DNA from: a virus
Lineage: Duplodnaviria; Heunggongvirae; Uroviricota; Caudoviricetes
IMG/VR virus record: IMGVR_UViG_2693429584_000015
DNA length: 4,474 nucleotides
Strand: one strand, 5' to 3'
Shown one piece after another: positions 1 through 4,474 of this stretch. Position numbers and translations under genes: made by a program. Below the pieces are notes generated by a model. The model did no database searches. It saw nothing but the letters and a program-made list of their open reading frames with translations, and was not told where the DNA came from. Positions within the stretch are counted from its first letter, which is position 1. The number at the start of each line of letters is the position of its first letter.

Positions 1-31
1 GTCGTATATCGGTGGGGGTAAATCCGGAAAT

Positions 32-430
32 ATGTTTAACCGGTTACTGGTTTCGAAAAAGCTGACGAAAACAGCAGTTAATGAGGTTTTACGCAGCATG
101 AAGAAATCCGGGCTGGAAAAACCGGAACTTGAGGCATTTTTTCGGGATATGACCAGAGGGAAGCAGAAGAGCTGGTTGTCACATTGTACAGACACAGAGG
201 CGTTGATTATTGATCGCGTTATCAGTGAGGTGCTTGGGGAATATCCCGGGCTAATCAATATTCTCCGGCAAAGGTACGAAGGACGGGGAATGAGTAAGAG
301 AAAAATGGCAGAATGTTTAAATCGTACTCACCCGGAATGGTGTTTCAGCACATGTGAGAAACGTATTGCAGGTTGGTTAGCCGTGGCTGAACACATGCTT
401 TATGTACCTATGCACGATTCATTTCGATAA
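32..430 (+). CDS. Q-like late-gene antiterminator (tentative); possibly 5'-truncated by the window edge
   Basis: ORF with ATG at 32 and TAA at 428-430, but the frame is open back to base 2 with no in-frame stop, so the true start may lie upstream. The central and C-terminal regions (CTDTEALIIDRV ... GMSKRKMAECL ... EKRIAGWLAVAEHML) resemble, from memory, the Cys-rich core of QuuD-type Q proteins. Position fits: directly upstream of a hairpin/terminator interval and of cargo plus nanS-p-like gene. Family assignment not search-verified. Confidence 0.55.
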   Translation: MFNRLLVSKKLTKTAVNEVLRSMKKSGLEKPELEAFFRDMTRGKQKSWLSHCTDTEALIIDRVISEVLGEYPGLINILRQRYEGRGMSKRKMAECLNRTHPEWCFSTCEKRIAGWLAVAEHMLYVPMHDSFR

Positions 431-526
431 AAAAAGCTTGCTTTTTTACGCAGAAACAGCTTGAATTCCTGTAAGCTTCGCAAAGCTGTATCGCGAGGCG
501 AAATGCAAGTTTTTTCGCACAAGGAA
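431..526 (+). promoter_or_regulatory. Candidate late-promoter / qut-like leader between Q-like gene and first terminator
   Basis: AT-rich interval with four AGCT(T/G) repeats (435-439, 458-462, 474-478, 484-488), an AT hairpin (431-448) and a 6-bp stem gcgaaa/tttcgc (498-518). No clean sigma70 -35/-10 pair could be fixed by eye. Role inferred by analogy to lambda PR'-qut-tR' organisation. Confidence 0.3.
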
Positions 527-548
527 GCCACCGGAAGGTGGTTTTTTT
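527..548 (+). terminator. Rho-independent terminator (tR'-like candidate)
   Basis: Stem gccacc (527-532) / ggtgg(t) (537-542) with a GGAA tetraloop, followed by a 7-T run (542-548). Confidence 0.6.
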
Positions 549-671
549 GTGTCCGTAATATACAGCAGCGCAATAAATTCGCTGGTGGTTATTAATACCG
601 TTCTTTCAGCTTGCTGGCTTTTTCGACAAGAGTTATTGGTGTGTCACGTTAACCGGAAAAGGGAAAAAGGC

Positions 672-869
672 ATGCTAAAACAGCAGGATATGACCGAAAC
701 CGCCAGAGTGGTGTTTAATGAATTAAGCGTCACCGAACCGGCGACCGTCGAGGAAATTGCGCAGAACACTTATCTTTCACGCGAACGCTGCCAGTTAATA
801 CTGACCCAGCTTGTTATGGCGGGTCTGGCAGATTATCAGTTCGGTTGTTACAGACGCCTTCCTCAGTGA
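672..869 (+). CDS. Small (65 aa) hypothetical protein, winged-helix-like (FaeA/PapI-like pattern, tentative)
   Basis: ATG at 672 preceded by a purine-rich stretch (aaaagggaaaaagg). Sequence MLKQQDMTETARVVFNELSVTEPATVEEIAQNTYLSRERCQLILTQLVMAGLA... shows a helix-turn-helix-like 'T..EIA ... S..R...L..L...G' pattern. The longer GTG-initiated form from 549 was rejected because it starts inside the upstream terminator T-tract. Stop codon sits inside the downstream terminator hairpin. Confidence 0.45.
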   Translation: MLKQQDMTETARVVFNELSVTEPATVEEIAQNTYLSRERCQLILTQLVMAGLADYQFGCYRRLPQ

Positions 870-879
870 AGGCTTTTTT
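856..879 (+). terminator. Rho-independent terminator
   Basis: Perfect 6-bp stem gccttc (856-861) / gaaggc (868-873), 6-nt loop, then a 6-T run (874-879). Confidence 0.55.
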
Positions 880-1019
880 ATTTGTGGTAATGGGCGGCTG
901 GTGGGTGTTAGCGGCACCTGCCAGCCATCTGCTCATGCGTTGGGGTCACAAGCAAACCTCAGGCCCATCTGCTTTGCGCAAAAGCGGTATGAGCCTATCA
1001 GAGAAGTGCTTATTGATCT

Positions 1020-2081
1020 ATGGCTAATACTGTAAAAATATCCAGTTGTAAGTTAATCAACGCTGATTGCCTGGAATTTATCCAGACCTTACCGGAAAAC
1101 TCTGTCGATCTGATAGTCACAGACCCGCCATACTTTAAAGTGAAGCCCGAGGGCTGGGATAACCAGTGGAAGGGCGACGATGATTACCTGAAGTGGCTGG
1201 ACCAGTGTCTGGCGCAGTTCTGGCGGGTGCTGAAACCTGCCGGAAGTCTTTACCTGTTCTGTGGTCATCGCCTGGCATCTGATATCGAAATCATGATGCG
1301 TGAACGCTTCAGTGTGCTGAACCATATTATCTGGGCGAAGCCGTCCGGACGCTGGAACGGATGCAACAAGGAAAGCCTGCGGGCGTATTTCCCCGCCACA
1401 GAGCGCATTCTGTTCGCGGAACATTATCAGGGGCCGTATCGTCCGAAAGATGCCGGGTATGCGGCGAAGGGCAGTGCACTGAAACAGCATGTGATGGCCC
1501 CGCTGATTTCTTACTTTCGTGATGCGCGTGCTGCTCTGGGGATAACGGCAAAACAGATTGCAGATGCCACAGGAAAGAAAAACATGGTGTCGCACTGGTT
1601 CAGTGCCAGTCAGTGGCAGCTGCCGAACGAAAGCGATTATCTGAAATTACAGGCCCTGTTTGCCCGGGTGGCAGAAGAGAAGCATCAGCGCGGTGAACTG
1701 GAATGGCCACACCACCAGCTGGTCAGCACATACAGTGAACTTAACCGGCAATATGCCAGCCTGCTGGAGGAGTACAAATCTTTGCGGCGTTATTTTTCTG
1801 TATCGGCTGCTGTTCCGTATACGGATGTCTGGATGTATAAGCCTGTACAGTATTATCCGGGCAAACACCCCTGTGAAAAACCGGCAGATATGTTGCGTCA
1901 GATAATAGAGGCCAGCAGTCGTCCGGGTGATTTGGTTGCCGACTTTTTTATGGGGTCAGGTTCCACGATAAAAGCCGCGCTTTCGCTTGGTCGTCGGGCA
2001 ATAGTTGAGCTTGAGGCTGAACGGTTTGAGCAGACGGTGAGCGAGATAAGAGAAATTCTGACGTGTAAAGCTGTTGACTGA
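1020..2081 (+). CDS. DNA methyltransferase, beta-class (N6-adenine or N4-cytosine), orphan (no adjacent restriction endonuclease)
   Basis: 353-aa ORF with an in-frame TGA at 1014-1016 fixing ATG 1020 as the first start. Catalytic motif IV 'DPPY' near the N-terminus (LIVTDPPYF) and AdoMet-binding motif I near the C-terminus (DLVADFFMGSGST); this IV-before-I order defines beta-class amino-MTases. 'HPCEKP' is typical of the class. Weak SD. Confidence 0.9.
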   Translation: MANTVKISSCKLINADCLEFIQTLPENSVDLIVTDPPYFKVKPEGWDNQWKGDDDYLKWLDQCLAQFWRVLKPAGSLYLFCGHRLASDIEIMMRERFSVLNHIIWAKPSGRWNGCNKESLRAYFPATERILFAEHYQGPYRPKDAGYAAKGSALKQHVMAPLISYFRDARAALGITAKQIADATGKKNMVSHWFSASQWQLPNESDYLKLQALFARVAEEKHQRGELEWPHHQLVSTYSELNRQYASLLEEYKSLRRYFSVSAAVPYTDVWMYKPVQYYPGKHPCEKPADMLRQIIEASSRPGDLVADFFMGSGSTIKAALSLGRRAIVELEAERFEQTVSEIREILTCKAVD

Positions 2082-2187
2082 TTAATCAATGCTTATTTTT
2101 TCATAAGTCTTGTTGCAATATATAAGTATGGGGTGTAAAGTTGTTCTCGAAAATAATCATGTTTTCTCACGAATCAGAGGGGGGATA

Positions 2188-2448
2188 ATGATTGAGGTTC
2201 GATGGACAAGGACAGCCCTGAAGCAGTTACTTCGTGTGGATACGCGGTATCGGCAGGCGATAAAGGATAAGGTCGGTGCGCTAAAGGATTTTCCTCTGGT
2301 AGCCATGGATTTTAAAAAGCTATCAGGGAGTGACAATCGATTCCGTTTGAGGGTCGGCGTGTACAGGGTTATTTTTGATGTTGAGGATGGTGATCCTGTT
2401 GTCCTGGATATTAAGGAAATTAAGCGCAGAAGCACAACCACATACTAA
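2188..2448 (+). CDS. Type II toxin, RelE/ParE superfamily (HigB-like gene order)
   Basis: 86-aa ORF; ATG 2188 preceded by a strong SD (gaGGGGGGataATG). N-terminus MIEVRWTRTALKQL and the core FRLRVGVYRVIFDVEDGDPVVLDIKEIKRR match the RelE/ParE fold signature. The upstream TTG extension in the ORF track (2110) was rejected. Followed 60 nt later by an HTH protein. Confidence 0.8.
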   Translation: MIEVRWTRTALKQLLRVDTRYRQAIKDKVGALKDFPLVAMDFKKLSGSDNRFRLRVGVYRVIFDVEDGDPVVLDIKEIKRRSTTTY

Positions 2449-2454
2449 GGGAGG

Positions 2455-2472
2455 CTGGCGGGAGACCGCCAG
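2455..2472 (+). promoter_or_regulatory. Intercistronic hairpin between toxin and antitoxin genes
   Basis: Perfect 7-bp inverted repeat ctggcgg (2455-2461) / ccgccag (2466-2472) with a GAGA loop; only 3 T's follow, so not a classic terminator. Could be an operator palindrome or an mRNA structure tuning antitoxin translation. Confidence 0.4.
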
Positions 2473-2508
2473 TTTGCTGAACGACATTCAATCGCGAAAG
2501 GCAATGAT

Positions 2509-2883
2509 ATGAAAAACAGTGTCCAGTTTATTACTGATAATGCCGGTGTTAGAACCGGGGTCATTATGTCAGTTGCTGAATATGAACGGCTGTTAAGTCT
2601 GGCAGATCCTGATGATGATTTTGAAAGCATCCAGTATGAAGCCGGAGAGCATGACAATGAAACAATACCTCATGAAGTAGTATCCATCATGATTGATGAT
2701 GATGTGTCATTGTTGGCAGCATGGCGGATTTACAGGCGAATGACTCAACAGGAAGTGGCGGAGCGCCTGGGGGTTAAACAGTCAGCCGTATCTCAGTTTG
2801 AGAGAGCAGGAGCTCCGCGAAAATCAACACTGGAAAAACTGGCTGAGATTTACAACTGCCGACCAAATCAGTTGGCTGATTAA
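2509..2883 (+). CDS. Type II antitoxin, two-domain: N-terminal antitoxin-like segment plus C-terminal HTH (XRE-family)
   Basis: 124-aa ORF; ATG 2509 with an upstream aaagg. C-terminal MTQQEVAERLGVKQSAVSQFERAG...STLEKLAEIY is a canonical XRE/Cro-type helix-turn-helix; the N-terminal part (VQFITDNAGVRTGVIMSVAEYERLL) resembles antitoxin N-domains. Acidic linker in between. Toxin-first order as in HigBA-type modules. Confidence 0.75.
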   Translation: MKNSVQFITDNAGVRTGVIMSVAEYERLLSLADPDDDFESIQYEAGEHDNETIPHEVVSIMIDDDVSLLAAWRIYRRMTQQEVAERLGVKQSAVSQFERAGAPRKSTLEKLAEIYNCRPNQLAD

Positions 2884-3028
2884 TCCTGAGTTTGGTTTTC
2901 GTAGCGATTGCATTTTTCTTATCTGCTTGCCGTTGTAGGTAGCGTGTATTTGCATGTTGTTTTGTAGTTAACCTTATGATTGGCTGAATTTTGTTCATCA
3001 ATAAAAAATATCCCTCTCTGATCTTTAA

Positions 3029-3054
3029 GGTTCGCTTTGGCGGACCTTTTTTTT
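3029..3054 (+). terminator. Rho-independent terminator (end of the TA transcript, candidate)
   Basis: Stem ggttcgc (3029-3035) / gcggacc (3040-3046) with one G-U wobble, loop tttg, then an 8-T run (3047-3054). Confidence 0.6.
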
Positions 3055-3190
3055 ATTTCCGCGCCACGCCCGGCGTACATCAAAAACCACAGAGCCTTTC
3101 AGGGGTGAGCTTACGGGATGGTCAGTGTGACTTTCTCTGTGGGCTGGTCACCCCCGGGCGCAGGCTCACCCACTAAAAGGAAAAGTCACG

Positions 3191-3622
3191 ATGTTTGGTA
3201 TTTTCAAAAAGAAAACCCGCAGAGCAGCAACTGAAATTAAAAAGTTTGAGAAACGCGATCTGGCACAGGCGGTTATTAATGCTGCCTACCTGGTGGCCTA
3301 TGCAGATGGTGAATGTGAGACTTCAGAGAAAGCGAAGATCGAACAGGTATTACGTAACCAGCCAGCATTGTCCGCATTTACGTCAGAAATTAATGCCATC
3401 AGTGCCACGATCACAGGTCAGCTTGACACCAATTTTAAAATTGGTCGTCGTGCAGCGTTGCGTGAAATTGAAGATGTGAAACACGATACGCGTGAAGCGG
3501 AAGATGTGCTGGATGTGGCGGTGGCCATTGCTGAAGCAGATGGTGAAATTGAGCCGGAAGAGCGTAAGGTTCTGGAAGAGATTGCTGGTGTTCTTGGCCT
3601 GCGACTGGAGAACCACCTGTGA
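3191..3622 (+). CDS. TerB-like (tellurite-resistance TerB domain family) protein
   Basis: 143-aa ORF; ATG 3191 with SD AGGA 9 nt upstream. Two helical repeats each carrying the 'A.ADG' signature (AAYLVAYADGECETSEKAKIEQVL and VAVAIAEADGEIEPEERKVLEEIAGVLGL) typical of TerB-domain proteins. Assigned by motif pattern, not by search. Confidence 0.7.
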   Translation: MFGIFKKKTRRAATEIKKFEKRDLAQAVINAAYLVAYADGECETSEKAKIEQVLRNQPALSAFTSEINAISATITGQLDTNFKIGRRAALREIEDVKHDTREAEDVLDVAVAIAEADGEIEPEERKVLEEIAGVLGLRLENHL

Positions 3623-3786
3623 CGGTAAAACTGCGTCTGGCCGCTGTGGCACTCCTGCTGTTTCTGGTGGTGATGGTGGATTTCACCAGCAGGATCATGT
3701 CGGTGCTGGCGGATGGAGTGCTGGTGGTCGGTATTGTGGTATTGCTGTGGCCGGTGATAAAAAGAAACAGCCTGCATAATGCTTGA
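3619..3786 (+). CDS. Small hydrophobic protein (55 aa, two predicted TM helices), translationally coupled to the TerB-like gene
   Basis: Absent from the supplied ORF track (under its size cut-off); found by manual translation. GTG 3619 overlaps the TerB TGA stop (3620-3622) in a GTGA arrangement, with GGAG (3607-3610) 8 nt upstream. Translation VTVKLRLAAVALLLFLVVMVDFTSRIMSVLADGVLVVGIVVLLWPVIKRNSLHNA has two hydrophobic segments and a basic C-terminus. CTG/GTG-rich codon use matches neighbouring genes. An internal ATG 3673 start would remove the first helix. Confidence 0.45.
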   Translation: MTVKLRLAAVALLLFLVVMVDFTSRIMSVLADGVLVVGIVVLLWPVIKRNSLHNA

Positions 3787-3951
3787 TTTTTTTGTTTACT
3801 GTTTATTAAAAATACTACTGCATGGTGAATCCCCCTGTGCGGAGGGGCAATCAGCAACCAGGTATATGTGATAATCGCGGATTCAGGTGCTGATACTGAA
3901 TTCACCGGGAGGCACCCGGCACCATGCAAGAAAAAGAATGTGCATGCAAAC

Positions 3952-3978
3952 ATGCCCCTCTCCGGAGGGGCATTTTTT
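3952..3978 (+). terminator. Rho-independent terminator (strong)
   Basis: Perfect 7-bp GC-rich stem gcccctc (3954-3960) / gaggggc (3965-3971), extendable by 2 bp, loop tccg, then a 6-T run (3973-3978). Confidence 0.65.
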
Positions 3979-3983
3979 ATGGG

Positions 3984-4010
3984 TAAAAAATGCCCGAATG
4001 GGTTCGGGCA
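3984..4010 (-). terminator. Rho-independent terminator on the minus strand (convergent with the 3952-3978 terminator)
   Basis: Perfect 8-bp stem tgcccgaa (3991-3998) / ttcgggca (4003-4010), 4-nt loop. The A6 run at 3985-3990 becomes a U-tract only for a minus-strand transcript. No minus-strand gene to the right is visible in the window. Confidence 0.45.
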
Positions 4011-4071
4011 ATAGCATGAGATACTGATATTGTTGTGTTGTTATCGTGTGGATTTTAACCAGGGTTTATCA

Positions 4072-4097
4072 GGCTGCGCAACTGCGTGGCCTTTTTT
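4072..4097 (+). terminator. Terminator-like hairpin plus T-run (weak)
   Basis: Stem ggctgcg (4072-4078) / cgtggcc (4085-4091) with two G-U wobbles, 6-nt loop, then a 6-T run (4092-4097). Confidence 0.35.
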
Positions 4098-4105
4098 CAT
4101 TTCTT

Positions 4106-4150
4106 GGGCTGTAGTCCCCGTGTGTCATTCAGGCTTCCGGACTACAGCCC
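4106..4150. repeat. 12-bp perfect inverted repeat with a 21-nt spacer
   Basis: gggctgtagtcc (4106-4117) and its exact reverse complement ggactacagccc (4139-4150), about 45 bp upstream of the esterase start codon. Confidence 0.6.
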
Positions 4151-4193
4151 ACTCCATATCTGATTTAATACACTATCCCGGCCGGGAGGAATA

Positions 4194-4474
4194 ATGACAT
4201 TTAAACATTATGATGTTGTCAGGGCGGCGTCGCCGTCAGACCTTGCGGAAAAGCTGACACACAAACTGAAAGAGGGCTGGCAGCCGTTTGGTAGTCCGGT
4301 GGCCATAACCCCTTATACCCTGATGCAGGCGATTACAGCAGAAGGTGATGTGGTGGTCAGTGGTGCAACTGAGCCGGAGTGGTACTACGTCATCGTACTG
4401 GCCGGGCAGTCCAATGCCATGGCTTACGGTGAAGGGCTTCCGCTGCCGGATTCATACGATGCTCCGGATCCGCG
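4194..4474 (+). CDS. Prophage esterase, nanS-p-like (sialate O-acetylesterase / SGNH-type); 3'-partial, continues beyond the window
   Basis: ATG 4194 with a strong SD GGGAGG (4184-4189). The N-terminal ~50 aa (MTFKHYDVVRAASPSDLAEKLTHKLKEGWQPFGSP...) resemble the small DUF1737-type domain recalled at the N-terminus of prophage NanS-p esterases, followed by the esterase motif YVIVLAGQSNAMAYGEG. No stop before the window end. Confidence 0.7.
   Translation, partial: MTFKHYDVVRAASPSDLAEKLTHKLKEGWQPFGSPVAITPYTLMQAITAEGDVVVSGATEPEWYYVIVLAGQSNAMAYGEGLPLPDSYDAPDP

Follow-up and report, generated by a model that had tools for sequence, protein, structure and literature searches.

A probable M.EcoGII-family adenine methyltransferase gene and its candidate structured leader RNA in the late region of a lambdoid prophage

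The DNA examined here, hereafter the window, is a 4,474-nucleotide stretch of a tailed phage (IMG/VR record IMGVR_UViG_2693429584_000015), and the window is that whole stretch. It carries a DNA methyltransferase gene, which is preceded by a conserved non-coding leader and, further upstream, by a small open reading frame (ORF). The genes, all on the + strand, occur in the order Q-like antiterminator, 65-amino-acid ORF, methyltransferase, RelE/ParE, helix-turn-helix (HTH) protein, TciA/TerB, TciB and nanS-p (Table 1). The methyltransferase ORF (1020..2081, + strand) has an ATG start and a TGA stop and encodes 353 amino acids; the coordinates given in an earlier note on this sequence are exact.

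Table 1. Features of the window and their coordinates (nt, nucleotide; aa, amino acid)
Feature	Position	Strand	Remarks
Methyltransferase gene	1020..2081	+	M.EcoGII-family beta-class N6-adenine DNA methyltransferase, 353 aa, WP_053894618.1
Motif IV, DPPY (catalytic)	aa 35-38, nt 1122-1133	+	motif search, alignment
HPCEKP	aa 283-288, nt 1866-1883	+	motif X region, before motif I; aligned to solved structures
Motif I, FMGSG (FxGxG, S-adenosylmethionine binding)	aa 310-314, nt 1947-1961	+	motif search, alignment
Motif II region, RRAIVELE	1992..2015	+	codon GGC (Gly) missing between nt 2003 and 2004; relatives RRAIGVELE
Non-coding leader of the methyltransferase gene, candidate structured RNA	888..1019	+	~135 nt; covariance-model match 871-1025
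P1a/P1b long hairpin	~890-940	+	P1a AUGGGC/GCUCAU; P1b 12-pair hairpin
P2/P3	~967-1003	+	proposed helices
P0	UGUGR/UCACA	+	alternative to P4
P4	GGUCAcAAGC with GCUUacUGAUC, -14 to -4 before AUG	+	proposed start-occluding helix, alternative to P0
65-aa ORF	672..869	+	PHROG 331 1.4e-44; weak Pfam TrmB (0.002) and DprA_WH winged-helix matches
Terminator-like hairpin downstream of Q	518..552	+	15-bp stem, then U-run; -21.9 kcal/mol, z -7.5
Hairpin and U-run overlapping the small-ORF stop codon	856..880	+	terminator scan; -8.9 kcal/mol, z -2.8
Q-like late antiterminator, 3' part	32..430	+	DUF1133 1.7e-77, Phage_antitermQ 2.1e-07, PHROG 753 (anti-termination protein Q-like)
RelE/ParE-family toxin gene	2188..2448	+	
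HTH (Xre-type) antitoxin-like gene	2509..2883	+	
TciA/TerB-like moron gene	3191..3622	+	PHROG 632
TciB/DUF3927 moron gene	3619..3786	+	PHROG 1470; overlaps the TciA/TerB stop codon with its own start
STnc100 small RNA	3794-3984	+	144.7 bits, gathering score 47
AgvB small RNA (anti-GcvB sponge)	3985-4046	-	96.5 bits, gathering score 56
nanS-p esterase gene, start only	from 4194	+	

The earlier note had called the product a beta-class DNA amino-methyltransferase from the order of its DPPY and FxGxG motifs and from the HPCEKP element. Both the motifs and the homology bear this call out. The Pfam profile N6_N4_Mtase (PF01555) was matched at 141.7 bits (cut-off 26.7; E-value 4.4e-41), and PHROGs 6025, 67 and 6952, all of them DNA methyltransferase families, were matched at 1e-95 to 1e-107. 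The linear order is DPPY, a helical insert (~145-255), HPCEKP, FMGSG and VELE (329-332), and the position of DPPY ahead of FxGxG is the order of the beta class. Since residues 29-338 span only positions 1-218 of the 221 of the N6_N4_Mtase profile, the middle of the protein must hold an insertion of ~90 residues. Among 99 diverse relatives D35 and K287 are invariant and P36, P37, Y38, H283 and P288 are conserved in at least 90%, and HPCEKP corresponds to HPTQKP in CcrM, RsrI and M.BceJIV. An AlphaFold model was built on the 99 diverse sequences (27 close relatives gave a predicted local distance difference test score of 62); the class I Rossmann methyltransferase fold superposes on solved members, with a helical, Cro/C1-like target-recognition domain between motif IV and motifs X, I and II. 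The SPPY/SPPF motif IV of N4-cytosine DNA methyltransferases such as M.PvuII is not found, motif IV being DPPY, and PvuII is the weakest sequence match in the PDB (2.4e-06), while the best sequence and family matches are adenine enzymes.

The closest characterized relative is M.EcoGII, a 349-amino-acid beta-class prophage enzyme that methylates adenine in any context (PMC5778455). Its sequence (GenBank EGT69837.1, from E. coli O104:H4 C227-11) was taken from Supplementary Table S1 of the SUPREM paper (PMC11551740) and was machine-read with slips of character recognition (HH for HI, RRR for RR), so that the identities given here are slightly underestimated. The window protein and M.EcoGII agree at 309 of 355 positions (87%), at 74 of 78 in the target-recognition domain (160-237) and at 43 of 44 in the dimer interface (97-110 and 116-140), i.e., the orthology is full-length and includes both the HTH four-helix-bundle recognition domain and the dimer interface. 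Identity to the reconstructed ancestor Anc291 is 299/355 and to SUPREM 250/357. M.EcoGII, Anc291 and SUPREM have all been found experimentally to be non-site-specific (PMC5778455, PMC11551740), so that the window protein, which is closer to M.EcoGII than Anc291 and SUPREM are, falls inside an experimentally non-specific clade; M.PflMI, the nearest site-specific enzyme, lies outside it (PMC11551740). The methyltransferase of phage 1720a-02 (AGR48369.1), which Murray et al. called very similar to M.EcoGII (PMC5778455), is 87% identical to the window protein and likewise follows a Q gene and a small ORF. The best explanation of the gene is, therefore, that it is very probably an orthologue of M.EcoGII, a sequence-non-specific N6-adenine methyltransferase of lambdoid prophages. 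The earlier note held that specificity could not be read from the sequence, which is true of the motifs alone but not of the homology: the overall identity to M.EcoGII and that of the recognition domain place the protein in the non-specific family, and we predict with reasonable confidence that it has no specificity beyond the target adenine, in double-stranded as in single-stranded DNA. The central segment that the note took for a possible target-recognition insert corresponds to the HTH-bundle recognition domain of this family, and the sequence-non-specific adenine methyltransferases of E. coli prophages, which it mentioned in general terms, are the very family to which the window protein belongs.

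The window matches E. coli contig CYAT01000105.1 exactly, and another, longer contig (L003) carries this DNA too, with replication, RusA and Q genes in front of it. Among phage records the best match is PPyecE_EH1910, a prophage that is not a Shiga toxin (Stx) phage, with 98.6% nucleotide identity over window positions 581-4474; there the region is followed by holin and endolysin genes. The Stx2a phage of that strain has the order Q, small ORF, methyltransferase, three tRNAs, stx2AB and the same esterase gene, and the two gene orders together put the methyltransferase first in the late region, directly ahead of the variable cargo slot. The gene, thus, lies in a lambdoid prophage, flanked by the Q antiterminator and by the position at which stx is found in Stx phages, and this confirms the prophage origin proposed in the earlier note. 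That note also regarded the methyltransferase as an orphan, and no match to an endonuclease family, such as the adjacent gene of a Type II restriction-modification system, was found among the ORFs of the window, of contigs L001 and L003, or beside orthologues in four other genera, Klebsiella, Salmonella and Pantoea among them. The Q-like gene runs off the start of the window contig and its full version on L003 encodes 176 amino acids. Of 5,426 complete E. coli genomes, 1,928 encode a homologue of the methyltransferase, and a single genome can hold as many as six copies.

Two terminator-like hairpins (518-552 and 856-880) separate Q from the methyltransferase gene. None of 200 shuffled sequences was as stable as the first, which is a candidate tR'-type terminator that Q-modified polymerase would need to read through; equivalents of the second occur in other genera with different stem sequences. 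M.EcoGII is not expressed in the lysogen and constitutive clones are deleterious (PMC5778455, PMC12707154); in vivo the enzyme methylates >85% of adenines, and it blocks all 18 of the 18 adenine-sensitive restriction enzymes tested. By analogy, the window gene may also be silent in the lysogen and its product toxic if made constitutively; what the window itself shows is the position of the gene behind the terminators and a candidate structured leader without a Shine-Dalgarno sequence. We envisage that after induction Q-modified RNA polymerase would pass the terminators and the enzyme would be made, that it would use S-adenosylmethionine (AdoMet, or SAM) to methylate most adenines of the replicating phage DNA and of the host DNA, and that the packaged genomes would then be protected in the next host from those Type I, II and III restriction systems that are blocked by N6-methyladenine (m6A).

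The window protein differs from its family in motif II. The DNA reads GCAATA---GTTGAG where the relatives have GCAATAGGCGTTGAG, i.e., it is one codon short of every relative examined in the DNA alignment, and the protein accordingly has GRRAI-VELE in place of GRRAIGVELE. Of 120 close relatives, 118 have Gly in this motif II column. The spacing between the second Gly of motif I and the acidic residue of motif II is 17 in 117 of 118 close and in 87 of 88 diverse relatives. The near-invariant pattern of a small residue, any residue and an acidic residue, lying 17 residues beyond the second Gly in motif I, is not found in the window protein, which bears on its activity and not on its homology. In class I methyltransferases the acidic residue ending beta-2 binds the ribose of AdoMet. 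The equivalent motifs in solved structures are GRKFIGIE (CcrM), GRNFIGCD (MboIIA), ERNFIGIE (DpnA) and GRNSICTD (RsrI). The AlphaFold model has a normal beta-strand at 326-330, although AlphaFold is insensitive to changes of this kind. The allele (WP_053894618.1) occurs on two contigs and in UniRef (n=4), the glycine is present in the rest of its 90% cluster, and the 5,426 complete E. coli genomes hold no match to it above 97.7%; the deletion is, therefore, a real but rare variant, and in itself a minor curiosity. A different lesion is seen on a viral contig (L106, 2126-2443) in which an intact leader is followed by methyltransferase residues 283-347 only, most of the gene having been deleted internally.

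Several of these observations weigh against an active, protective M.EcoGII orthologue. Its motif I to motif II spacing is 16 residues where 204 of 206 relatives have 17, and the acidic residue E330 is retained, but two positions before it stands Ile where Gly is usual, a change that could impair AdoMet binding. In addition, no + strand sigma-70 promoter emerged from a consensus scan of the stretch from Q to the methyltransferase gene, so that pR' was not located (TTGCTT-N17-TTGAAT at 438-466, noticed by eye, is weak and not convincing as a promoter), and in the literature we found no paper showing hypermethylated virion DNA or measured m6A for these phages, which makes the anti-restriction role one that we infer. 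With the glycine lost and the spacing broken, the activity of this allele is uncertain, and the copy might even be decaying, its protein stable but catalytically dead because AdoMet is no longer bound, and tolerated or even favoured in a lysogen to which the active enzyme is toxic. The conservation of the glycine and of the spacing argues for this, as do the IG-x-E/D motif of the solved CcrM, MboIIA and DpnA, the rarity of the allele, and the existence of degraded family members, e.g., the internally deleted gene on L106 and many truncated representatives. The frame is, however, otherwise intact and without other unusual substitutions, with 345 of 354 positions identical to the PPyecE_EH1910 orthologue, diverse relatives may have L, A, C, V or M two positions ahead of the acidic residue, the loop before beta-2 could absorb the loss of one residue, and the strand is retained in the AlphaFold model. 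We consider it rather unlikely that the allele is substantially impaired, and give the same weight to an outright inactive copy. It is far less probable still that the gene encodes an orphan methyltransferase of the ordinary sequence-specific kind, which would mark a defined motif and so regulate phage or host genes. WP_053894618.1 and its relatives do carry the RefSeq name "site-specific DNA-methyltransferase," and M.PflMI (CCANNNNNTGG), the nearest site-specific relative, is reported to have a similar predicted fold, recognition domain included (PMC11551740), but the name is a generic family label rather than a tested property, and the window protein, with the identities to M.EcoGII given above, is closer to it than are Anc291 and SUPREM, both of which are still non-specific (PMC11551740). 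A main role other than protection of phage DNA, i.e., methylation of RNA, or takeover or killing of the host by hypermethylation of its chromosome in lytic growth, also seems improbable. RNA and DNA:RNA hybrids are indeed substrates of M.EcoGII, and cells are harmed when it is expressed (PMC5778455, PMC11551740), but its rate on RNA is ~100-fold below that on DNA (0.12 vs 11.12; PMC11551740, Table S3), higher RNA activity goes with E179 where the window protein has Q179 as in M.EcoGII, and many restriction enzymes are blocked by M.EcoGII.

The leader of the methyltransferase gene is more strongly conserved than the gene itself. In an alignment of 52 loci its mean column identity is 82%, with many invariant blocks, and it is conserved in Escherichia, Klebsiella, Salmonella, Citrobacter, Enterobacter, Kosakonia, Pantoea, Erwinia, Mixta, Rosenbergiella and Lonsdalea. 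Mean pairwise nucleotide identity is 0.83 in the leader vs 0.75 in the first 450 nt of the methyltransferase gene, the third codon positions of which are at 0.50; the next 450 nt are at 0.69 overall. The invariant ATG of the leader might open a hidden small ORF, but this was rejected, as the frame is interrupted by stops or frameshifts in 49 of the 52 loci and shows no clear codon periodicity. The covariance model finds each locus once, on the + strand in all cases, with a match that runs up to the start codon. At least 120 viral contigs contain a pattern made of three invariant blocks, and in 116 of the 117 with room downstream the methyltransferase starts 51-52 nt after it, the exception being an internally deleted gene. 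In a Trabulsiella locus (L017, 515-601, + strand) a second, partial match to the leader (32.5 bits) lies ~800 nt upstream of the main copy. Xenorhabdus and Photorhabdus keep only a first hairpin resembling P1b, some with an ordinary Shine-Dalgarno sequence, and since nothing but this hairpin is shared they provide no independent test of the start-occluding helix. Rfam 15 contains no match to the leader, and a permissive cmscan of positions 400-1150 gave only unrelated sub-threshold matches (best E 0.13), while the same library detects STnc100 and AgvB elsewhere in the window. Identity with a known type of prophage small RNA (AsxR/AgvB, Pas, STnc100 or StxS) was also rejected, for StxS without a literature search aimed at it; these lie downstream of cargo genes or elsewhere in the window, and the published small RNAs of enterohaemorrhagic E. 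coli prophages map downstream of cargo genes and not to the leader.

The 65-amino-acid ORF upstream of the leader forms part of the same conserved module. An ORF of 63-69 amino acids lies ~150 nt upstream of every orthologue looked at in other genera; it is 78-95% identical to the window ORF in Klebsiella, Salmonella and Pantoea prophages and can be detected down to ~37% identity in Xenorhabdus and Rosenbergiella. It precedes the methyltransferase in 65 of 87 genome loci and in 108 of 118 viral contigs. The module of small ORF, leader and methyltransferase was found behind three different Q families and is, therefore, not tied to one particular antiterminator. The small winged-helix protein could be a regulator of the methyltransferase or bind the P3 palindrome of the leader.

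The RNAalifold consensus of the leader consists of nested helices. In the explicit helix model P0 and P4 are alternatives, since both draw on one stretch of UCACA. When this model is applied to the 52 loci, 94% of the cells are paired, compared with 26-45% when the partners are slid by 1-3 columns, and 10-11 pairs show changes on both sides, compared with 3.1 +/- 1.1 in shuffles (none of 500 reaching the observed value). The covariance-model alignment, with 60 distinct sequences, contains 16 such pairs vs 5.0 +/- 1.3 in shuffles, among them 9 of the 12 pairs of P1b and three pairs each of P2 and P3. For P0, P1a, P1b, P2 and P4 the sense strand pairs better than the opposite strand, as is expected of an RNA with its G.U wobbles, while P3 pairs equally on both. 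The methyltransferase gene has no recognisable Shine-Dalgarno sequence. An enzyme that is harmful at the wrong time is likely to have an extra layer of control, and we regard the leader as a candidate new cis-acting element controlling the translation or stability of the toxic enzyme. More specifically, it may fold such that the start region is paired in helix P4 and translation stays off until a signal or the alternative P0 fold releases it; candidate signals would be a ligand such as SAM or S-adenosylhomocysteine, the 65-amino-acid protein, or transcription by Q-modified polymerase. That the leader is such an undescribed cis-regulatory RNA, opened by the P0 fold on a lytic signal and perhaps with the help of the 65-amino-acid protein, is put forward tentatively, as a possibility somewhat short of even.

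What weighs against this RNA switch is that covariation is seen only in the long hairpin and in some of P2 and of P3, that P0, P1a and P4 hardly vary and so fit the model but are unproven by it, and that P3, a symmetric palindrome, could equally be a DNA operator. The whole leader might accordingly act as DNA, as a promoter or operator bound by the small winged-helix protein or by another repressor, and not as a folded RNA; this we think less probable, though it deserves to be taken seriously. The near-perfect palindrome of P3 (GCTTTAGCGCTAAAGC), with its equal pairing on both strands, would be explained by such an element, as would the many invariant blocks outside the proposed helices and the small winged-HTH ORF that usually adjoins the leader. 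The leader is, however, kept also at loci without a detected small ORF, and no consensus promoter was found; moreover, the sense-strand preference of the other five helices, the G.U wobbles of which would be C.A mismatches on the other strand, and the compensatory changes in the long hairpin point to RNA. The two functions are not mutually exclusive, and the leader may act both as RNA and as DNA operator.

Some further observations concern the mosaic structure and the neighbouring genes. Window positions 1-580 (Q and the region just after it) have no match in PPyecE_EH1910 or the Stx phages and only ~76% matches among phages (the vB_EcoS-666R9 group), so that the methyltransferase module has here been joined to a different Q allele. 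Similarity to most Stx-phage copies stops at ~nt 2038-2044, inside the 3' end of the methyltransferase gene; the last ~13 residues, therefore, vary by phage lineage (EILTCKAVD, DLVSQNG, DLIV) and a mosaic junction lies within the coding sequence. The RelE/ParE and HTH genes have the toxin-first, HigBA-like order and fill the slot in which Stx phages carry tRNAs and stx. A terminator-like hairpin (3027-3048) precedes the TciA and TciB genes. STnc100 and AgvB are convergent and lie between the cargo genes and nanS-p, the same arrangement as at the pR' moron site described by Tree et al. (2014). In a Klebsiella prophage (L006/L007, 7143-8808, - strand) genes with Pfam matches to AcrVA2-like (PF26125) and Cas1 (PF01867) proteins lie by the methyltransferase/TerB/TciB block, encoded on the other strand and placed before the lysis genes. 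Salmonella (L008, 1-776) and Pantoea (L009/L010, 1-1594) prophages carry a large C5-cytosine DNA methylase gene (PF00145) a few genes upstream, and thus two methyltransferases each.

The gene itself encodes one more beta-class N6_N4 methyltransferase of the M.EcoGII family and adds little to that family, as M.EcoGII has already been characterized, is sold commercially and is widely used for chromatin footprinting. It does suggest that the RefSeq/PGAP name "site-specific" is probably wrong or misleading for the whole family, the members of which are 75-92% identical to M.EcoGII, and the natural motif II deletion offers a simple test of motif I-II geometry in beta-class enzymes. The only part with real potential for novelty is the module of small ORF and leader, which appears to be undescribed as far as Rfam 15 and the literature were checked. 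In the literature found, it has not been worked out how a non-specific, harmful methyltransferase is silenced and switched on, or how it benefits the phage. The module gives a concrete handle on how such an enzyme is kept silent and then switched on, and if the proposed fold is correct, the leader would represent a new RNA family that is widespread in enterobacterial prophages, Stx phages included.

Of the systems with which the window can be compared, M.EcoGII (with its paralogue M.EcoGI) is the closest; the window protein shares with M.EcoGII the beta-class order, the prophage location, the lack of an endonuclease and Q179. The window protein is one residue shorter, through the missing motif II Gly, differs by 13% substitutions that fall mostly in residues 240-330, and has another C-terminal tail after ~residue 340, near the mosaic junction. 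The solved enzymes M.MboIIA (1g60), M.BceJIV (8urk), CcrM (6pbd) and M.RsrI (1eg2), by contrast, are ~30% identical to the window protein and sequence-specific, with different recognition modules and without a counterpart of the HTH-bundle recognition domain of the M.EcoGII family (PMC11551740). Among Stx and lambdoid phages, 1720a-02, phiP27, Stx2a_WGPS2 and PPyecE_EH1910 (BCI50126.1) carry the gene at the same place, in the order Q, small ORF, leader, methyltransferase and cargo slot. The PPyecE_EH1910 protein is 97.5% and the 1720a-02 protein 87% identical to the window protein, and all of these relatives retain the motif II glycine, unlike the window allele. In the Stx phages tRNAs and stx follow, whereas in the window and PPyecE_EH1910 the slot is occupied by the RelE/ParE-HTH pair and TciA/TciB.

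Two further systems resemble the locus in organization or logic rather than in sequence. The controller (C) proteins of restriction-modification systems are likewise encoded by a small HTH gene directly upstream of the modification gene with a palindrome in between, but the small ORF of the window has no sequence match to C proteins, the window has no endonuclease to be timed, and binding of the small protein to the palindrome is a proposal made by analogy. The mom gene is controlled by Dam, OxyR and Com. Mom of phage Mu, like other toxic phage modification enzymes timed to induction, is not made in the lysogen, does harm when mis-expressed, is produced late for the protection of progeny and is controlled in several layers (PMC12707154), and the window gene may follow the same logic with a protein and a chemistry that are unrelated.

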